Part shown: positions 31,809 to 62,540 of the stretch, piece after piece
Layout: each line of letters begins with the position of its first letter
Position numbering within the stretch: position 1 is the stretch's first letter
Assembly (NCBI GenBank): GCA_964016885.1
Contig: OZ024741.1
Span: 38,378,001 to 38,442,000 of the forward strand
Source of the DNA: Eledone cirrhosa
Taxonomy: Eukaryota
Direction: 5' to 3'
Length of the DNA: 64,000 nucleotides
Position numbers and translations under genes: made by a program
The notes under the pieces: model-generated
The model's database searches: none
What the model saw: only the letters and a program-made list of their open reading frames with translations
What the model was told of the DNA's origin: nothing

Positions 31809-31885
<77 letters not shown>

Positions 31886-31888
<3 letters not shown>

Positions 31889-32326
31889 GATATTAAACAA
31901 ATGGAAACTATATTTATAAAACCATATTTATTTCATTATACATATTTCAGGGATACCATATTAAAAATATGGCATGCCTTCGTCAGATAAAATACAATAT
32001 ATAAACAGTTTTATGAATAATTTTGACGTACCATAAATATAAGCGACCATTAAGAAAAGAGGCTGGCTTTCTTAACGGTCGCTTATATTTATGGTACGTC
32101 AAAATTATTTATAAAACTGTTTATATATTGTATTTTATCTGAAGAAGGCATGCCATATTTTTAATATGGTATCCCTGAAATATGTATAATGAAATAAATA
32201 TGGTTTTATAAATATAGTTTCCATTTGTTTAATATCGTATATCTACTCCAAAAACTTGTCGAGTGCTTTATATCGGTTATAAAATATTTACTTGTTGTAA
32301 CCCAACATTTTAAATAAAACTTTTGC

Positions 32327-32330
<4 letters not shown>
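31886..32330. mobile_element. Fold-back element (arms about 170 bp), family B, hammerheads at 31929-31994 (-) and 32131-32196 (+)
   Basis: tattttat CTGAAGA aggcatgccatatt..aatatggtatccct GAA ATATGTAT A atgaaata. Arms span 31886-32239. Confidence 0.85.
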
Positions 32331-32403
<73 letters not shown>

Positions 32404-32406
32404 GAG

Positions 32407-32574
32407 AGAAGAGCTTCTACAGGACTAGAACTGTTTCATTCGTCGCTTCCTGATGATTTCTCACGAATGAAACAGTTCTAGTCCTGTAGAAGCTCTTCTA
32501 TATTAAAACAGTTATACTCTGCTATGTATTGAGTACCTTACTTACTGTGGTTACGCCCGATTGAACCGGGGATA

Positions 32575-32575
<1 letters not shown>
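32407..32575 (+). mobile_element. Fold-back mini-element, family A, hammerhead at 32445-32493
   Basis: gcttc CTGATGA tttctcacgaat GAA ACAG ttctagtc CTGT A gaagc; 37-bp arms. Confidence 0.85.
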
Positions 32576-32623
<48 letters not shown>

Positions 32624-32757
32624 AGATAAATCTACCAAAATATACGGTAGTGTCCAATCCGTATGAAGAACTCAATGTAATCCAAATATCATGAAAAAAG
32701 AAAAGATGTATTCAAATTTTTTTCGATTAAAAACACAGGAAAACAGAGTCAAGATAA

Positions 32758-33032
32758 ATTAATAAAAATCATGAATAAAAACAAAGAAACAGTTCCTTAT
32801 ATTAAAAAATTCATCATTTTACGATCGTTTCTAGGATATATATGTGTGTGTTGGTATGAAGACAGCATATATATGTGTAGGTATGTATATTCCCTCTGAT
32901 AGTTTGTAAACATTTTACATAGATCTATATGATATACATACCAACACACACATATATATCCTAGAAACGATCGTAAAATGATGAATTTTTTAATATAAGG
33001 AACTGTTTCTTTGTTTTTATTCATTATTTTTA

Positions 33033-33037
<5 letters not shown>
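32758..33037. mobile_element. Fold-back element (arms about 110 bp) with only the 3' half of a hammerhead
   Basis: Arms at 32758-32868 and 32937-33037. GAA ACGATCGT A aaatg is present; no CUGANGA found. Confidence 0.7.
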
Positions 33038-33087
<50 letters not shown>

Positions 33088-33236
33088 GTTTAAATTTAAT
33101 GGTTTACCACTGGGTAGAATTGGTCATTCTGCAATGTTAATCATGGCATAATATGAGAAAAGCACTGGACGTTATGCAACTCATCCATCGTTGATGTTGA
33201 ATCATGTTGGTGGTGCAGGAAGGGAGTAAATGTATT

Positions 33237-33525
33237 ATAAAGTGAAGGAGGACAAGTATGTTGAGTTTCCTTAATTATTTATTTCTGTAAACACTATGCA
33301 CATATGGTTGTGTCAAAAACATAAAAAACACTCTTTTTCTTTTCAGTTTTTTCTTTGCTTGTTTCCTTAAAGTTTACCAACATTCCGTTGGTATACATCT
33401 ACTAAGCAATTTACACCTGAAGATGTCACCGTCTTCTTACGCAACCTGGCCACTGAAATATGCATAGTGTTTGCAGAAATAAATAGTTAAGGAAATATAA
33501 CTTACTTGGCCTCCTGTCATTTCAC

Positions 33526-33530
<5 letters not shown>
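33237..33530. mobile_element. Old fold-back element with hammerhead at 33413-33470 (+)
   Basis: acac CTGAAGA ... GAA ATATGCAT A gtgt. Diverged arms at 33237-33303 and 33459-33530. Confidence 0.7.
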
Positions 33531-33565
<35 letters not shown>

Positions 33566-33643
33566 GTGAGGTTTTTTTTACAAAATGAAAAATAACCGAG
33601 GTGTCCTACACGAGTGAAAGTATAAAGAAAAAGAGATGAAATC

Positions 33644-33892
33644 GAAAATGCAACTGAAGTCTTATTTTTTTTTAAAATATATATATTTATTTGGTTCCTT
33701 TACCGGTTTCGCAGTTCTTCTGCTTTTCAAAAGGTGAGTTGAGATGGAGGGTCTGTGGTTTTTAGATGTGAGAAAAACCACAGACCCTCCATCTCAACTC
33801 ACCTTTTGAAAAGCAGAAGAACTGCGAAACCGGTAAAGGAACCAAATAAATATATAGATTTAAAAAAAAAATAAGACTTCAGTTGCATTTTC
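33644..33892. mobile_element. Fold-back element (arms about 120 bp) with U3-A8 variant hammerheads at 33697-33734 (-) and 33802-33839 (+)
   Basis: cctt TTGAAAA gcag aagaa ctgc GAA ACCGGT A aagg. Confidence 0.85.
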
Positions 33893-33932
33893 ATATATAT
33901 ATAGTGTTATGCTTTGGGAACAAATTCAGAAA

Positions 33933-33965
<33 letters not shown>

Positions 33966-33969
<4 letters not shown>

Positions 33970-34381
33970 AAAGTTCTATTTAAAGGTGTTAGGATACAAC
34001 AAGTAAATATTTTTATAACTGATATAAAGCACTCGACACATTTTTGGAGTAGATATACGATATTAATAAATGGAAACTATATTTATAAAACCATATTTAT
34101 TTCATTATACATATTTCAGGGATACCACATTAAATTATGGTATGCCTTCATCAGACAAAATACAATATATAACAGTTTTACAAATAGGTTTGACTATCCA
34201 GACAGCCTCCAAAAGTAATGGTTGTATTTTAAAGGGTACGTCAAACCTATTTGTAAAACTGTTATATATTGTATTTTGTCTGATGAAGGCATACCATAAT
34301 GTAATGTGGTATCCCTGAAATATGTATAATGAAATAAATATGGTTTTATAAATATAGTTTGCATTTATTAATATCGTATAT
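33966..34381. mobile_element. Fold-back element, family B, hammerheads at 34098-34162 (-) and 34272-34336 (+)
   Basis: Arms at 34053-34194 and 34240-34381. Homologous to 31886-32330 but with a different inversion point. Confidence 0.85.
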
Positions 34382-34619
34382 ATATATAAAGAATGAATAA
34401 TAATAATAATATATATATATATATATATGCTTGTCTGTGTGTATTCGTATTTTTTTTCCTGGTTTCAGGCATTAGACTCCATCCACACACATATGCGCAC
34501 ACACACACATATATATATATATTCATGTATAAACACATTTTTGCATGTGTGTTTGTATGTTTATATATGCGTGTATGTATATATAGAATGACGTAAATTT
34601 AGCTATATAAACGTCAACC

Positions 34620-37719: not shown

Positions 37720-37800
<81 letters not shown>

Positions 37801-37802
<2 letters not shown>

Positions 37803-38812
37803 ATCAAGGTTTAGCAAATAATGAAAAAGTTTCAAAATAAATTTTAAAAAATTAACTTTACTTACTATAGTTACCTTTACCGAATCGGTTTCGAATCTCA
37901 AAAATAAACGGAGACCATACGGCCTTCGTTGCAAAGAAAGATTCTCGTCAGGAGGTTCTTTTCATTCGAAGAATATAAAATTCTTGAATTTAAATTACGA
38001 ACTAGCGCTATCCAAAACTGTTCCCGAGATGAGAGTAAATGAAGTGGAATTAATTTTTTCAAGGGCCGAAGTAAAGATAGAGGCAGAGGGAAGAAGGTCA
38101 ATCGGCCACCACTATCGCTAGCAGCAGTCGGAACGACCAAATTTTTTCTCAACATAGAGGAGTAGAGTAATAATAGGATATGTGTTCCTACACGCACAAG
38201 GCGCTAAGGGACACATGTATTGTCCAACCATATGCCAATATGGTTCAATGGCAGGTTAATAATTTAACGAGCCAGAACATATATAATCAAGGTTTAGCAA
38301 ATAATGAAAAAGTTTCAAAATAAATTTTAAAAAATTAACTTTACTTACTATAGTTACCTTTACCGAATCGGTTTCGAATCTCAAAAATAAACGGAGACCA
38401 TACGGCCTTCGTTGCAAAGAAAGATTCTCGTCAGAAGGTTCTTTTCATTCGAAGAATATAAAATTCTTGAATTTAAATTATGTTGAGAAAAAATTTGGTC
38501 GTTCCGACTGCTGCTAGCAATAGTAGTGGCCGATTGACCTTCCTCCCTCTGCCTCTATCTTTACTTCGGCCCTTGAAAAAATTGATTCCATTTCATTTAC
38601 TCTCATCTCGGGAACAGTTTTGGATAGCGCTAGTTCGTAATTTAAATTCAAGAATTTTATATTCTTCGAATGAAAAGCAACTTCTGACGAGAATCTTTCT
38701 TTGCAACGAAGGCCGTATGGTCTCCGTTTATTTTTGAGATTCGAAACCGATTCGGTAAAGGTAACTATAGTAAGTAAAGTTAATTTTTTAAAATTTATTT
38801 TGAAACTTTTTC

Positions 38813-38816
<4 letters not shown>
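37801..38816. mobile_element. Family C tandem (483-bp period) plus inverted insertion, three hammerheads: 37873-37956 (-), 38356-38439 (-), 38679-38762 (+)
   Basis: 37801-37995 is repeated at 38284-38478; 38479-38816 is the reverse complement of about 37819-38156. The translated remnant REQFWI resembles a GIY-YIG C-terminus. Confidence 0.85.
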
Positions 38817-39296: not shown

Positions 39297-39539
39297 TGTG
39301 TGTGTTTGTGTGTATATATATATATATAAATATATGTATATTTTAACTTTAATTATATTTCATATAAAATAATACAACTGGCTTTCCACAAAATACATAT
39401 AGTTAGCAACCCAAACACTTAATTGGGTTTATACTAACGTATAACCTAATGTTTGTTGAGTGAGATGGTTACCAGTCAGAGTTTAGCTTAAAGCTATCTC
39501 TGTTATTGTATTAAATATGTATATATATATATATATATT

Positions 39540-39592
39540 GTAAGTATGTATGTATACGTACATACATATATGTATACAGACGTACAGTAGCA

Positions 39593-39668
<76 letters not shown>

Positions 39669-40108
39669 CAGGTACACATACATATATGCACGCATCAGTT
39701 TAGCGGACGCTTATTATAACGCCGCTTTGTTCGTTTGTAAACAAACTGAACAGTCTGAATTTATGCCATACGGTGTTAAGGCAACCACGTCACCTTTTTG
39801 TTCAACACTGACACAGGAACGATGTACTAGTTTCAAGCTTGTTAGCTATCATCAGCACCGTATACCCATCTGCCAGATAGTTGAACGTTCGAAAGTATAT
39901 ACTTTCCTTATGAAAATTAACGGCTGAGCAGCCTAATTTGCATATTGAGTGAGTTAAATCGGTCAGGCATACCGAAAACGATAAGTTGAAATAAAATGAA
40001 AACGGAATTTCATTTCTCACTCTTAGTATGGCACTTACTTAAATGTAAGTATGTATGTTATAATAAGCGTCCGCTAAACTGATGCGTGCATATATGTATG
40101 TGTACCTG

Positions 40109-40156
<48 letters not shown>

Positions 40157-40260
40157 TGCTACTGTACGTCTGTATACATATATGTATGTACGTATACATT
40201 CATACTTACATTTAAGTAAGAGTGAGAAATGAAATTCCGTTTTCATTTTATTTCAACTTG
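39540..40260. mobile_element. Tandem/inverted mini-element, family D, hammerhead at 39819-39861 (-)
   Basis: acggtg CTGATGA tagctaacaagctt GAA ACTAGT A catcgt. 39541-39719 is inverted at 40058-40208. Homologous to 56547-57260. Confidence 0.8.
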
Positions 40261-47243: not shown

Positions 47244-47310
47244 AATGAAGTAATTCCATCGGAAAAGTCCAGGAAAAAAGAGTGCTCTATGTAAGCAACA
47301 GAGCTTAATT

Positions 47311-47529
47311 ATTATTATTATGTAATAAACAACATAAGGCAATTATTCCATTTACCAGTGGTTTCTTAAAAGCAAAAGGTTTTGCTTTCAATCCTCAGAA
47401 TGAAAAATCCTGGTTTGTTAGAAACAAACCAGGATTTTTCATTCTGAGGATTGAAGGCAAAACCTTTTGCTTTTAAGAAACCACTGGTAAATGGAATAAT
47501 TGCCTTATGTTGTTTATTACATAATAATA

Positions 47530-47530
<1 letters not shown>
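47311..47530. mobile_element. Fold-back element (arms about 108 bp) with hammerheads at 47349-47402 (-) and 47440-47493 (+)
   Basis: catt CTGAGGA ttgaaggcaaaa cc ttttgcttttaa GAA ACCAcTGGT A aatg. Confidence 0.88.
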
Positions 47531-47578
<48 letters not shown>

Positions 47579-49739: not shown

Positions 49740-51595
49740 GTAGGAGGTGAGTTTTATTGTAGCACAATAAAGCAATGCAAATATCGGATAAGTAGCACTC
49801 AACAGTTTATAGGACTGGAGTATAAATAATATAAGATCAAAAGATGGTTAAAAGAGTTCCATGTATTTTATTATGCGCATTTCAAAAACAAATATCATCA
49901 TGGGATGATACTTGCGTTCTCATCAGATAAAATAGGAAGACATGATATGAAGTTTAAAAAACACTTGCGAGCAGTGAAGTGTTCAATCTACATATGAAAA
50001 ATAAAATAAGATGGATATATGAGATTGGGGAAAAAGAAAGAAGGAAGGGAGAAGGAAAAGGTAAAGAAGAGGAAGAAAGAAAATAAAGTATGACGGGGGA
50101 GGAGTATAAGAAGGAAGGATGAGAGAGGAGGAGAAATGAGAGAGAGAGAGAGAGATAGCCTTTAATACTGAGAAACACTGTCTTACAAAGAGAAATTTAA
50201 AAAATCGTTGTAAGATAATACATAATTAAAAAAAAATTTGAAATTAAAAGTTAATGAGGTTTATGAATGGTGATGTTTATGATTAAAGAAAGAGGAATTA
50301 AGAATAGTATTTATTTAAGGTTTATATATTGAAGGGTTTAATAATATGTGCGAAAAGGAATTTATTAATATGTATTATTAAAATAAAAATATTAAGGAGA
50401 TAAGGTGAATGAAGAAGAAATTAAATGAATTATGAACTTAGGGGTAGGGTCTAAGTTTGTTTCTATGTATTGTAATATGAAAAAGTAAATGATAGGTTTA
50501 ATACGAGCACGAAGGAGAGAAGAAAGAAGAACAATTAAGGAAGAAAAAATATATAACGTCAAAAATATATGTTTACAAAATTTACTAATGGTAATATTAG
50601 TATATAATAAAAATATAGTTTGTATGGCCAAGAATAGAGGGAAAATACTATAGTGAGTAATAATATGAATTAAGAAGTAATTGAGAAGTAAAAGTTACTG
50701 ATTAAAGATTAGAAATTAAAAAAGAAAAAAGGATAAAAGGAAAAAAGGATAAAAAAAAGAAGAAAAATAGGGGACCGCTAACGACATAGAATGAGTAAAT
50801 TGTATACTATAATATACCGAAATAAGGTAGAAAGCTGGGTATATTTGTAAAAGATATAAAAGCGTTTGAGGAAAGAAGATTTTAAACTAATTAGGTAGTG
50901 AGATAGCTGTATACTTTATGGAAAGTTCTATGGGATTTATGCAAGCAGAGCGAAAATAAATCCGTACGTCTATTTATTATAGAATTAAAATTAGAGATAA
51001 TGGTAAATTTCTCGGCTAGGCAGAGATTACATGTTCTGGATAGGGAAGAATTCCGGTAAGGAGAGGCGTTGTAAACCTTCCTCCAAGAAATGTTGTAGTT
51101 AATATTTTTTCTTTTAAGGACCATATGAGTTCTGAGAGTGCCGTGTTAGTTCTTTTAAGTTGGTATTTAAAAGACGAATTGTGATTATAAAATCTTGCTT
51201 TAAAGGAAGTGGGAGTGGAACCAAATTTTTATCAAGACATTGGTTATTAAGAGGACATTTAGTTCTAACAGGGCAATTACAATTACGATTAGAGAAATTA
51301 CCAGAGTTATTAACAAGTGACCTAGTATTATTTATAGAAGGAATTGGATTGGAGAAGTTATTTACGATAGGTGCCAAAGTTTCCTGATTTAGATTGGTGT
51401 TATGAACGTTCGACAAAGTTACATTTGACGTCGTATTTAAATTTACTGAATCTAGCCTAGAGTTAGCATTGACGCCGGGTTTACTATTGCTATTATTATG
51501 ACGCTCAGTGTTGGATGGATATAATTTATTATTTAATATTTTATTATTATGTTTAGAGATAATGTTAGACATGTTGGAAGTGGTGGAATAAGTGG
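49740..51595 (-). mobile_element. 5'-truncated PLE, third family (Hydra-clade-like); hammerhead at 49864-49934
   Basis: NCNCPVRTKCPLNNQCL and ISW..ASPY..CNLCLAEK..INRRTDLFSLCLHK. Ribozyme: tattttat CTGATGA..GAA ATGCGCAT A ataaaata. Confidence 0.85.
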
Positions 51596-51799
51596 TGGCC
51601 TTGTGCCTAAATCAGAAACCATTATTAATAATTAGGCTGCGGCAATGATGATGCACCGCATTAAAGGGATTTAGTCGAGCAGTTCTTAGTTTATTTATTT
51701 TGTTGTTTTTGTGTTCATGTCTAGTATTTATATTCTCAATGTCTTTTCGTAGGAACACAAACAGTAAACACAGCCACACGAATACGTACATACATACAT

Positions 51800-54992: not shown

Positions 54993-55467
<475 letters not shown>

Positions 55468-56546: not shown

Positions 56547-56551
<5 letters not shown>

Positions 56552-57257
56552 GGAAAAAATGAAACGAAATTTCATTTCTCACTCTTAGTACGGCTGTTAC
56601 TTAAATATAAGTATGTATACGTACATACATATATGTGTACAGACGTACAGTAGTATGTATATATATATACATACATGCACACATATATATATGTACGTAT
56701 GGGTTTACCGAACATTTATTATAATGCTCGGTTTGTTTGTAAACAAACAGCCCGAACTAAGCCGTACAGTATTTAGCAACCATCGTTGCCCTTTTGTTCA
56801 CAACTGACATATATGTATGTACATATACATACTTATATTTAAGTAACAGCCGTACTAAGAGTGAGAAATCAAATTTCGTTTCATTTTTTCCATTTATTGT
56901 TTTCGGTGCGCCCAGCCGATTAACTCAGTCGATATGCAAATTAGGCTGCTCAGCCGTTAATATGCATAAGGAAAGTATATACTTTCAGACGTTCAATCAT
57001 CTGGCAGGAAGGTATACGATGCTGACGATAGCTAATAAGCTTGAAACTAGTACATCGTTCCTTTGTCAGTGTTGAACAAAAGAGCAACGATGGTTGCTAC
57101 ACACTGTACGGCTTAATTCTGGCTGTTTGTTTACAAACACACTGAGCATTATAATAAATGTTCGGTAAGCCTATACGTACATATATATATATGTATGTAT
57201 ATATATACATGCTACTGTACGTCTGTATACGTATATGTATGTAGAGATACATACATA

Positions 57258-59605: not shown

Positions 59606-59840
59606 TACAAGGACGATTTGTTAGCCCTTCATTACGTCTATTTATTGGTGACGCGCGTTTCGCCATTGATCAGCTCATGGTTTTAATGACAGAATCTGTC
59701 ATAACAACAACAAAGGTCCGACGAACTTTTGATTGCCGAGTCGAGCCAGATCGATACAGATCGAACCATGAGCTGATCAATAGCGAAACGCGCTTCACCA
59801 ATAAATAAACTTAATGAAGGCTTAAAAAATCGTCCTTGTA
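59606..59840. mobile_element. Old fold-back element with degenerate hammerhead (59715-59799)
   Basis: Arms at 59606-59682 and 59764-59840; ggt CCGACGA..GAA ACGCG.. TC acc. Confidence 0.7.
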
Positions 59841-60009: not shown

Positions 60010-60016
<7 letters not shown>

Positions 60017-60318
60017 AGATCAAAAGATGGTTAAAAGAGTTCCATGTATTTTATTATGCGCATTTCAAAAACAAATATCACCATGGGATGATACTTGCGT
60101 TCTCATCAGATAAAATAGGGAGACATGATATGAAGTTTAAAAAACTCTTGCGAGCAGTGAAGTGTTCAATCTACATATGAAAAATAAAATAAAATGGATA
60201 TATGAGATTGGGGAAAAAAAGAAGGAAGGGAGAAGGAAAAGGTAAAGAAGAGGAAGAAAGAAAATAAAGGATGACGGGGGAGGAGTATAAGAAGGAAGGA
60301 TGAGAGAGGAGGAGAAAT

Positions 60319-60398
<80 letters not shown>

Positions 60399-62540
60399 TA
60401 GCCTTTAATACTGAGAAACAGTGTCTCACAGAGAGAAATTTAAAAAAACCGTTGTAAGATAATACATAATTAAAAAAAAAATTTGAAATTAAAAGTTAAT
60501 GAGGTTTATGAATGGTGATGTTTATGATTAAAGAAAAAGGAATTAAGAATAGTATTTATTTAAGGTTTATATATTGAAGGGTTTAATAATATGTGCGAAA
60601 AGGAATTTATTAATATGTATTATTAAAATAAAAATATTAAGGAGATAAGGTGAATGAATAAGAAATTAAATGAATTATGAACTTAGGGGTAGGGTCTAAG
60701 TTTGTTTCTATGTATTGTAATATGAAAAAGTAAATGATAGGTTTAATACGAGCACGGAAGGAGAGAAGAAAGAAAACATTTAAGGAAGAAAAAATATATA
60801 ACGTCAAAAATATATGTTTACAAAATTTACTAATGGTAATATTAGTATATAATAAAAATATAGTTTGTATGGCCAAAAATATAAGGAAAATGCTATAGTG
60901 AGTAATAATATGAATTAAGAAGTAATTGAGAAGTAATAGTTACAGATTAAAGATTAGAAATTAAAAAAGAAAAGAGGAAAAAGGAAAAAAGGAAAAAAAG
61001 AAGAAAAAAGAAAAAATAGGGGACCGCTAACGACATGAGTAAATTGTATAATATAATATACTGAAATAAGGTAGAAAGATGGGTATATTTGTAAAAGATA
61101 TAAAAGCGTTTGAGAAAAGAAGATCTTAAACTAATTAGGTAGTGAGATATTAACTGTATACTTTATGGAAAGTTCTATGGGATTTATGCAAGCAGAGCGA
61201 AAATAAATCTGTACGTCTATTTATTATAGAATTAAAATTAGAGATAATGGTAAATTTCTCGGCTAGGCAGAGATTATGGCGTATCTAAAGATAAGTATAA
61301 TAACCTTATCCTTAAGGAACCAAGGAAGAATTATCGTAAAACTAACCATGACAATTTGGAATCTATACACTTGGAAGCTTCTGATGTCTAAACTTAGCAT
61401 CGAGAAAAAGACCGAACCATTCTTCCCAAGAACTCCGAGGATAAATCTTAAGGATCATAAAAGTAATTTTCGAACGGGATTGCCTGTTAGTACTAATCGC
61501 CCCCTCTAAATCAGATCTGGGGGTTGTTAGTAAATCCATCTTGGATAGAATTATCCCACAGGTTCGTTCTAATTGCTCTATTTCTAACTTAAATTTATGG
61601 ATTGGTACATCTGATGTAATTAACTGGTTCAATGACCTGAATAATAAAAACAAACAAAAATGTATTAAGTTTGACATTGCCAGTTACTATTCTTCTATTT
61701 CTCCTTCACTCCTCAACAACGCTCTATCTTTCGCATTTAAATATTCTGACATTACCACAGATGAACTTTACATCATTCTCACCGCAAGAAAAACTATCCT
61801 GAAATTCAACAACGAATATTGGACTAGAGCTGATACTTCCAACAATTTTGATATCACAATGGGTTTGACGGATTCAGCGAAATTGACGGACTTGGTTGGT
61901 ATCTTTATTTTGAATTCTTTAAATCGGAAAATTCCTCAACTTCGCGGTGGAATTTATCGTGACAATGCCCTTTTTACTGTCTTAAACTGTAACCTAGTTA
62001 ACCTTAATATTATTAAGAATAATATACTTGATCTATTTAAGCACCATAACCTAAAAATTGAATTTGAAAACAACGTCAAACTAGCTAACTTCCTGGATAT
62101 ATCCCTTAATCTTGACACCGGCCTATATTACCCTTACCATAAAGGCAATGAGAATCTAAATTATGTTAATTTTAAATCTAACCACCCCATTAACGTTAAA
62201 AATGCTATAGTCAGTAATGTTGAAAAAAGAATCTCAAATCTACCCTCTAATAAAGTTATCTTCGACGCTAATGCCAATTATTATAATAATACGCTTTCCA
62301 AAGCCGGTTATCCTGACAAAATTAAATACAGTAAAGAAAACAATCATCGAAGGACTTATAGTAAAATAGTTAGTTATGAACATTCCAATAACTTAAATAA
62401 AAGACCTAGATACAAAAATATGATTTGGTACAACGCTCATTTTTCTCTATCTATTACTAGTAATATTTCTAAACTATTTTTAGGACCTTAGATAAATGCT
62501 TCCCTCCCTCGCATATCAATAGTAAGATCTTTAACAAACT
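60010..62540. mobile_element. Hydra-clade-like PLE: 3' end on minus (60010-61275, hammerhead 60047-60117) joined to an inverted RT segment on plus (61276-62540)
   Basis: 60010-61275 is a close copy of 49826-51030, and the RT ORF follows on the opposite strand. Confidence 0.85.
61541..62491 (+). pseudogene. PLE reverse transcriptase fragment (catalytic YRDD reads YRDN)
   Basis: KFDIASYYSSI, FDITMGLTDSAKLTDLVG, GIYRDNAL, FLDISLNL, YVNFKSNHP, IWYN. Confidence 0.85.

Follow-up and report, generated by a model that had tools for sequence, protein, structure and literature searches.

Positions 31886 to 34381 of the window, which is the whole 64,000-nucleotide stretch of DNA analysed here, raise the question of whether outward-facing inverted arms are a device or a trace of integration. 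A sequence-only reading had counted six separate fold-backs in 2.5 kb and proposed that their arrangement acts as a built-in ribozyme off-switch and as a source of double-stranded RNA (dsRNA). All six fold-backs were recovered with arm coordinates. In the most probable reading, six insertions, all 5'-truncated and drawn from five hammerhead-type families, are strung together in (TA)n, and their outward-facing hairpins are a likely by-product of integration and not a selected switch.

The chain of six insertions

The chain is made up of the following features:

31811..31884, no strand: (TA)n target array
31886..32326, plus strand: HP1, 5'-truncated insertion assigned by its motifs to a Hydra-clade Penelope-like element (PLE); tailless inverted arm 31886-32057, tail-bearing arm 32068-32239 with the tail to 32326, arms 97-98% complementary
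32401..32577, plus strand: HP2, second family, tail at right; arms 32407-32443 and 32463-32499, 37 bp each, 100% complementary
32624..33035, minus strand: HP3, third family, tail at left; arms 32754-32879 and 32916-33041, 91% complementary overall and 98% over the outer 105 bp
33085..33534, minus strand: HP3b, fourth family, tail at left; arms 33239-33303 and 33458-33522, 84%, the lowest arm similarity of the six
33560..33892, minus strand: HP4, fifth family, tail 33560-33643; arms 33644-33763 and 33773-33892, 98% complementary
33967..34384, minus strand: HP5, older subfamily of the HP1 family, tail 33967-34049; arms 34050-34194 and 34235-34384, 95-98% complementary
32327-32400, 32578-32623, 33036-33084, 33535-33559 and 33935-33966: similar (TA)n arrays between insertions

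The insertions occupy 2,231 of the 2,499 bp of the interval and are separated almost solely by (TA)n; the spacers consist of (TA)n or (TG)n plus a single stretch of about 30 bases of other sequence. Five repeat families are represented, with HP1 and HP5 belonging to one. Tails are found in all six insertions. The predicted fold of the whole plus strand contains all six fold-back helices. In a plus-strand transcript, the HP1 tail (32257-32299) is also predicted to pair with the HP5 tail (33995-34038). This pairing spans 1.7 kb, has the sense strand first, and involves a converging pair from two separate insertions.

The genome searched comprises 3.0 Gb in 1,796 contigs. HP5 shares 90% identity with HP1 and has the reverse orientation. 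HP1 matches the 3' end of two ORF-bearing copies (L031 and L032) at 97-98%, and these extend upstream for about 3.9 kb, reaching a frame-shifted ORF encoding a reverse transcriptase (RT) and, C-terminally, a GIY-YIG nuclease. Their frames hold YRDD and the GIY-YIG motif and have 50 homologs; the Pfam GIY-YIG match (E=0.006) is below the cut-off. Among named homologs of the parent protein, the best come from Argonauta hians (45% identity) and Octopus sinensis, in keeping with an octopod host although not proof of one. An RT followed by a GIY-YIG nuclease, the arrangement that defines an endonuclease-positive PLE, is linked here to the HP1/HP5-family 3' end. Both long copies are 5'-truncated, and both carry an upstream inverted tailless arm. 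HP1-family loci end at a single 3' base followed by (TA)n in 30/30 cases, and HP1-family insertions have (TA)n on both flanks, which would hide any target-site duplication. Upstream of one long copy, L031:844-1834 contains PIF1-like helicase frames (Helitron-like).

The L031 frame has DKT in place of DKG, a CxCX5C linker, no CCHH, and CxxC plus CxH in the nuclease. These motifs and the (TA)n target match the Hydra clade as defined by Craig et al. (2021, PMC8557442), and by sequence the HP1/HP5 family corresponds to the 3' terminus of a Penelope-like retroelement of the Hydra clade. The Hydra-clade PLEs described there, including Hydra-1_Obim, share all of these motifs as well as the C-terminal GIY-YIG, the 3' hammerhead, and (TA)n. 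They are generally <3 kb, whereas the parent here is at least 3.9 kb and has a long pyrimidine-rich 3' region. Compared by eye, the Hydra-1_Obim hammerhead (PMC8557442 File S2) is unlike all motifs here, so the families here are others.

All five fold-back families are multi-copy in the genome. First-look candidates numbered 777 for HP1, 650 for HP2, 696 for HP3, 1,542 for HP3b, and 31 for HP4, and at most 40 were scored for each. In the HP3 family, an upstream GIY-YIG frame similar to that of the HP1 parent is present in 2/8 loci (L257, L259). The 1.5-kb flanks of 14 HP2, 8 HP3b, and 14 HP4 loci contain a linker-like frame in the HP2 locus L245 alone, and through it HP2 is only weakly linked to an ORF. 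For HP3b and HP4, these flanks gave no ORF link, and both families are putatively Penelope-like by their anatomy. Where a parent was traced, the chain insertions are Penelope-like as judged from their coding frames. The anatomy, ribozyme type, and head-to-head layout of such PLE remnants are already published.

Junctions and the origin of the outward-facing arms

The antisense-first polarity is near universal in sequence that was not chosen by family. Among strict hammerhead motifs with a partner within 1.5 kb, the partner lies upstream in 59 cases and downstream in 1 (arms, not insertions, are counted). It is upstream in 31/31 cases in gene spans, 12/12 in the window, 5/5 in evenly spaced samples, and 11/12 in bystanders. 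A looser homology search placed 64 partners upstream and 5 downstream. Thirty loci picked solely by their last 112 bp, for which the upstream side alone was examined, include 20 with an adjacent upstream inverted arm. The combination of an upstream inverted 5'-truncated copy and a one-sided tail is present in 33 HP1-family hairpins and both long copies.

The inverted 5'-truncated pLTR insertions of endonuclease-positive PLEs described by Arkhipova et al. (2013, PMC3846280) and Craig et al. (PMC8557442) share the upstream head-to-head arm, the one-sided tail, the junction overlap or palindrome, and (TA)n targets. Head-to-head is given as the most frequent PLE arrangement in the former. Tails are described there as 30-40 nt, compared to about 80-155 nt here. 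Most copies here, unlike those insertions as described, are bare stubs, and 2.5 kb holds a chain of six. The formation of the inverted arms is treated in PMC8557442 as an open mechanistic question.

The 33 distinct HP1-family hairpins bear on that question. The outer end of the inverted arm is at -85 (85 nt short of the 3' end) in 29/33, and this fixed end fits a start site. The inner ends, read from local alignments to within a few nt, are variable and give 31 different junctions. The arms overlap by at least 1 nt at the junction in 23/33, joining mostly through short microhomology. The tailless arm extends at least 5 nt further 5' in 18/33, with a lead of 107 nt in L040 and 115 nt in L042; the tail arm extends further in 8, and the two end within 4 nt of each other in 7. 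In these 18/33, each arm holds sequence absent from the other. A whole hammerhead is missing from both arms in 2/33. Together with Naiads, which have inverted arms and are described as being without canonical hammerheads (PMC8557442), these two indicate that the geometry does not need a ribozyme.

The junction counts favour two-ended priming as the origin of the inverted arms, and it is from the junctions that we infer it. The element would nick both target strands and prime reverse transcription from each, and the two start sites would bracket the tail. The 3' ends of both cDNAs would then anneal and be filled in. Because each strand would start with antisense cDNA, the antisense-first order would be forced. 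In PMC11167929, both strands are extended and two start sites bracket or equal the tail. That study, on other families, also reports that the RNA templating insertion is uncleaved and that the ribozyme does not cleave when protein is absent. A narrow literature search that missed most subscription papers found, among its 20 best matches, no proposal that PLE inversions arise by two-ended priming.

In an alternative with the same by-product conclusion, a single nucleic acid would prime itself or snap back, and the hairpin tip would then be trimmed asymmetrically; self-priming on an antisense template is proposed in PMC3846280. The near-symmetry of many junctions (the 7/33 within 4 nt), the common subfamily alleles carried by most arms, and the short palindromes at HP2-family junctions would suit this origin, which is nonetheless unlikely. 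The tailless arm often reaches further 5', and the tail is found only on the other arm. Where each arm has private sequence, a single cDNA could serve as template for both only if a deletion came afterwards. A start site is also suggested by the constant -85 end, and the arms of HP1 differ at 3 sites for which both alleles occur in other copies. Minor shared alleles occur 18 times in both arms and 12 times in just one (some at alignment edges), so most hairpins look like one template lineage; the arm alleles do not decide between two-ended priming and snap-back.

In the HP2 family (L240-L252), the beginnings of hairpin and solo copies alike fall only a few bases from stem I, and the hairpin junctions are short perfect palindromes near stem I, a pattern that the query may bias. 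A MITE-like unit copied as a whole hairpin was ruled out by the 31 different junctions. A tandem non-LTR retrozyme, judged by the available descriptions, was ruled out because the region has no head-to-tail array. A parent RNA hairpin as the cause of a junction cluster near -256 to -280 finds no support in the fold, and that cluster partly reflects the initial query.

The six-member cluster is probably explained by repeated insertion into a preferred (TA)n target. Since (TA)n remains on either flank of every insertion, a further one is likely to be attracted there. The whole window has 18 strict motifs, or 28 per 100 kb; the density is 6.5 in a set of twenty 10-kb samples at even spacing, and in gene spans it is 3.5. 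The (TA)n content is 12% in the window, 3.5% in the even samples, and 3.0% in gene spans. The immediate flanks (20 kb) have no strict motifs. Extrapolation from 13 motifs in the 200 kb sampled gives very roughly 2 x 10^5 strict motifs in the genome.

Hammerhead motifs and their masking

Between 31886 and 34381, 7 motifs satisfy a strict hammerhead descriptor. Applied to dinucleotide shuffles (n=300), the same descriptor finds 0 motifs in 297 and 1 in 3. The hammerheads of the chain, including one degenerate form, are:

32131..32196, plus strand: HP1 minimal type I hammerhead, core 32139, cleavage predicted after 32188
31929..31994, minus strand: HP1 mirror hammerhead, core 31986, predicted cut at 31937
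Plus strand only: HP2 whole hammerhead, core 32450, predicted cut after 32488
33806 on the plus strand and 33730 on the minus strand: HP4 hammerheads, U3-A8 core variant
34280 on the plus strand and 34154 on the minus strand: HP5 hammerheads
Plus strand only: HP3b degenerate hammerhead, core 33417, predicted cut after 33466, stem II not accepted by the descriptor

Transcription from either strand had been expected to make the antisense arm first and the sense hammerhead second. The first half holds throughout, as the antisense arm precedes the sense arm in 6/6 fold-backs and all face outward. The second half holds for only 3/6, since a motif is present on both strands in HP1, HP4, and HP5, on the plus strand alone in HP2 and HP3b, and on neither in HP3. 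HP3 is without a hammerhead because its junction took out core base C3 and the 5' strand of stem I. The predicted cut site of HP3b lies under the antisense arm.

Rfam gave no hammerhead match in the region at E<=10; the matches listed are miRNA-like only, are below gathering scores, and include no hammerhead. The motifs therefore rest on the strict descriptor and on family evidence. They have the features of minimal type I hammerheads, namely the conserved core, stems I and II, and a palindromic helix III. Across 16 families, core position 7 is variable, and the 3/8 pair is C-G in 14 and U-A in 2. The descriptor demands pairing, so stem variety is not an independent test of a hammerhead.

Metazoan PLE minimal hammerheads described by Cervera and De la Pena (2014, PMC4209133) are likewise of type I with a palindromic helix III suited to dimers. 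They also include the U3-A8 variant and opposite-strand pairs 100-700 bp apart, as here. Those hammerheads are described with a small palindromic helix III, whereas helix III here is 6-16 nt, and stem II in the HP3 family reaches 101 nt. This stem II, found in L257 and L259, folds as one long helix and is partly built from (TA)/(TG)/(CA) microsatellite-like sequence.

Folding supports the proposal that the hairpin sequesters the ribozyme. Forcing the hammerhead fold inside the whole insertion is predicted to cost about 89 (HP1), 51 (HP2), 75 (HP4), and 93 (HP5) kcal/mol, and modelled hammerhead helix probabilities fall to 0.0 inside whole insertions. In truncated HP1 transcripts, nearly all sense-arm bases are predicted to be paired upon emergence. 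A transcript through the hairpin is predicted to zip up, mask the hammerhead, and be long dsRNA. In isolated monomers, the predicted probability of helix III is ~0, except for HP2 (0.16). A single minimal motif from other families is described as having no detectable cleavage and dimers as having low activity (PMC4209133). The monomeric motif type is nearly inactive as reported in PMC4209133 and PMC11167929, so there would be little to switch off. As a monomer, the masked motif is probably weak in any case, and its sequestration, although predicted, is likely incidental. The claim of a built-in switch fares less well than that of sequestration, as the anatomy is that of published integrations and some forms are without a whole ribozyme.

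A selected off-switch, or a dsRNA or small-RNA locus co-opted by the host, is highly improbable as an explanation of the chain. The nearly universal geometry and the dense cluster of motifs in the window would agree with it, as would much dsRNA potential in octopus, which has the highest hyper-editing reported by Porath et al. (2017, PMC5625713). However, motif density follows (TA)n content, the five families are young and multi-copy with independent junctions, hairpins arise without ribozymes, and one of the six is without an intact motif. Host Pfam domains are also absent from 161/161 non-TE-body frames of >=55 aa in the window plus 10 kb per side (84 kb), where only RT and GIY-YIG were matched. 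This frame scan would miss short exons and skipped 70 further frames inside known retroelement bodies.

Introns, double-stranded RNA, and neighboring elements

Orientation in introns bears on a milder form of the idea, in which the geometry is mechanical but unpaired sense hammerheads cut host pre-mRNAs and are purged, while hairpin copies are tolerated. Gene spans were delimited by same-strand Pfam matches to spectrin, I-set, and myosin, giving 19 blocks with 1,395,100 bases in all; they are unannotated intervals assumed to be intragenic. They contain 49 strict motifs in 12/19 blocks, compared to 4 in 1.36 Mb of shuffled sequence. Near-paired motifs are 16 sense and 15 antisense, far-paired motifs 1 and 4, and unpaired motifs 5 and 8 (p=0.58). 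When 2 singleton sense hits are dropped as likely chance and 1 tandem antisense pair is merged, the unpaired counts become 3 and 7 (p=0.34). By homology, solo intact copies are 4 sense and 12 antisense (p=0.077) versus 16 and 12 for solo broken copies (Fisher p=0.06); these are raw counts that take in far-paired and clustered copies. The depletion of unpaired sense hammerheads expected by the sequence-only reading thus appears as a lean in the predicted direction that falls short of significance.

Purging of exposed sense ribozymes is quite unlikely on these data. It would be in keeping with the predicted sequestration, with the unpaired ratio set against the even paired one, and with the contrast between intact and broken solo copies, which is what such selection would give. 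Uncovered motifs number 13 in 1,395 kb of gene spans versus 8 in 200 kb of even samples, and near-paired motifs 31 versus 5, as would also be expected. Yet no contrast is significant, before or after clean-up of the unpaired set; the gene spans are unannotated, and partners lying far away are missed in control pieces of 10 kb. Splicing is not necessarily harmed by a cut within an intron, which also counts against purging. Monomer activity is, moreover, undetectable as described in PMC4209133. A narrow literature search that missed most subscription papers found, among its 15 best matches, no intron orientation test for PLE hammerheads. An annotated assembly would allow an intron orientation count that makes in vivo ribozyme activity testable.

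As a general idea, hairpins as substrates for dsRNA pathways or editing are plausible and partly known. Palindromic Harbinger repeats of Xenopus and the lizard Penelope are self-folding and give dsRNA without a neighbor, as the hairpins here would. Both the lizard Penelope and the palindromic frog repeat are heavily edited (PMC5625713). ADAR editing is demonstrated there, whereas the hairpins here are known from sequence alone, and the repeat analysis described there left out octopus. Antisense small RNAs to rotifer Penelope copies are described in PMC3846280. HP1 differences in 4 contig sets of unknown kind are of several types and common between runs, and were attributed to paralog variants rather than editing.

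A broader claim joins these strands: unpaired sense hammerheads would be purged from introns and hairpins would be self-muting, letting ~10^5 hairpins pile up as a main dsRNA source behind octopod hyper-editing. This is very unlikely. If true, near-perfect hairpins of 40-200 bp, on the order of 10^5, would feed the exceptional hyper-editing of octopods. RNA-seq would show whether hairpins feed editing.

Other elements of the window are of related kinds. A near-complete PLE with pLTRs lies at 10672-14127 on the minus strand. Its 640-aa frame contains RT and GIY-YIG, and its DKG and CX5CxxC linker are Neptune-like, not Hydra. A separate 400-aa frame ahead of it has no Pfam match. This PLE is flanked by a 290-bp direct repeat (9946-10235, 14079-14369) with a hammerhead in each copy. 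Seven further fold-backs (8071-8198, 37796-38814, 39539-40259, 47309-47533, 55127-55464, 56549-57257, 59606-59840) mostly carry hammerhead motifs of additional families. Two copies of another hammerhead-bearing element end (49829-51611, 60012-62491) are 95-98% identical and adjoin remnants of PLE-like ORFs, located on the minus and plus strands. LINE-like copies at 2354-6871 (plus strand) and 24817-29546 (minus strand) are ~73-80% identical and opposite in orientation, and the former has an RT match.
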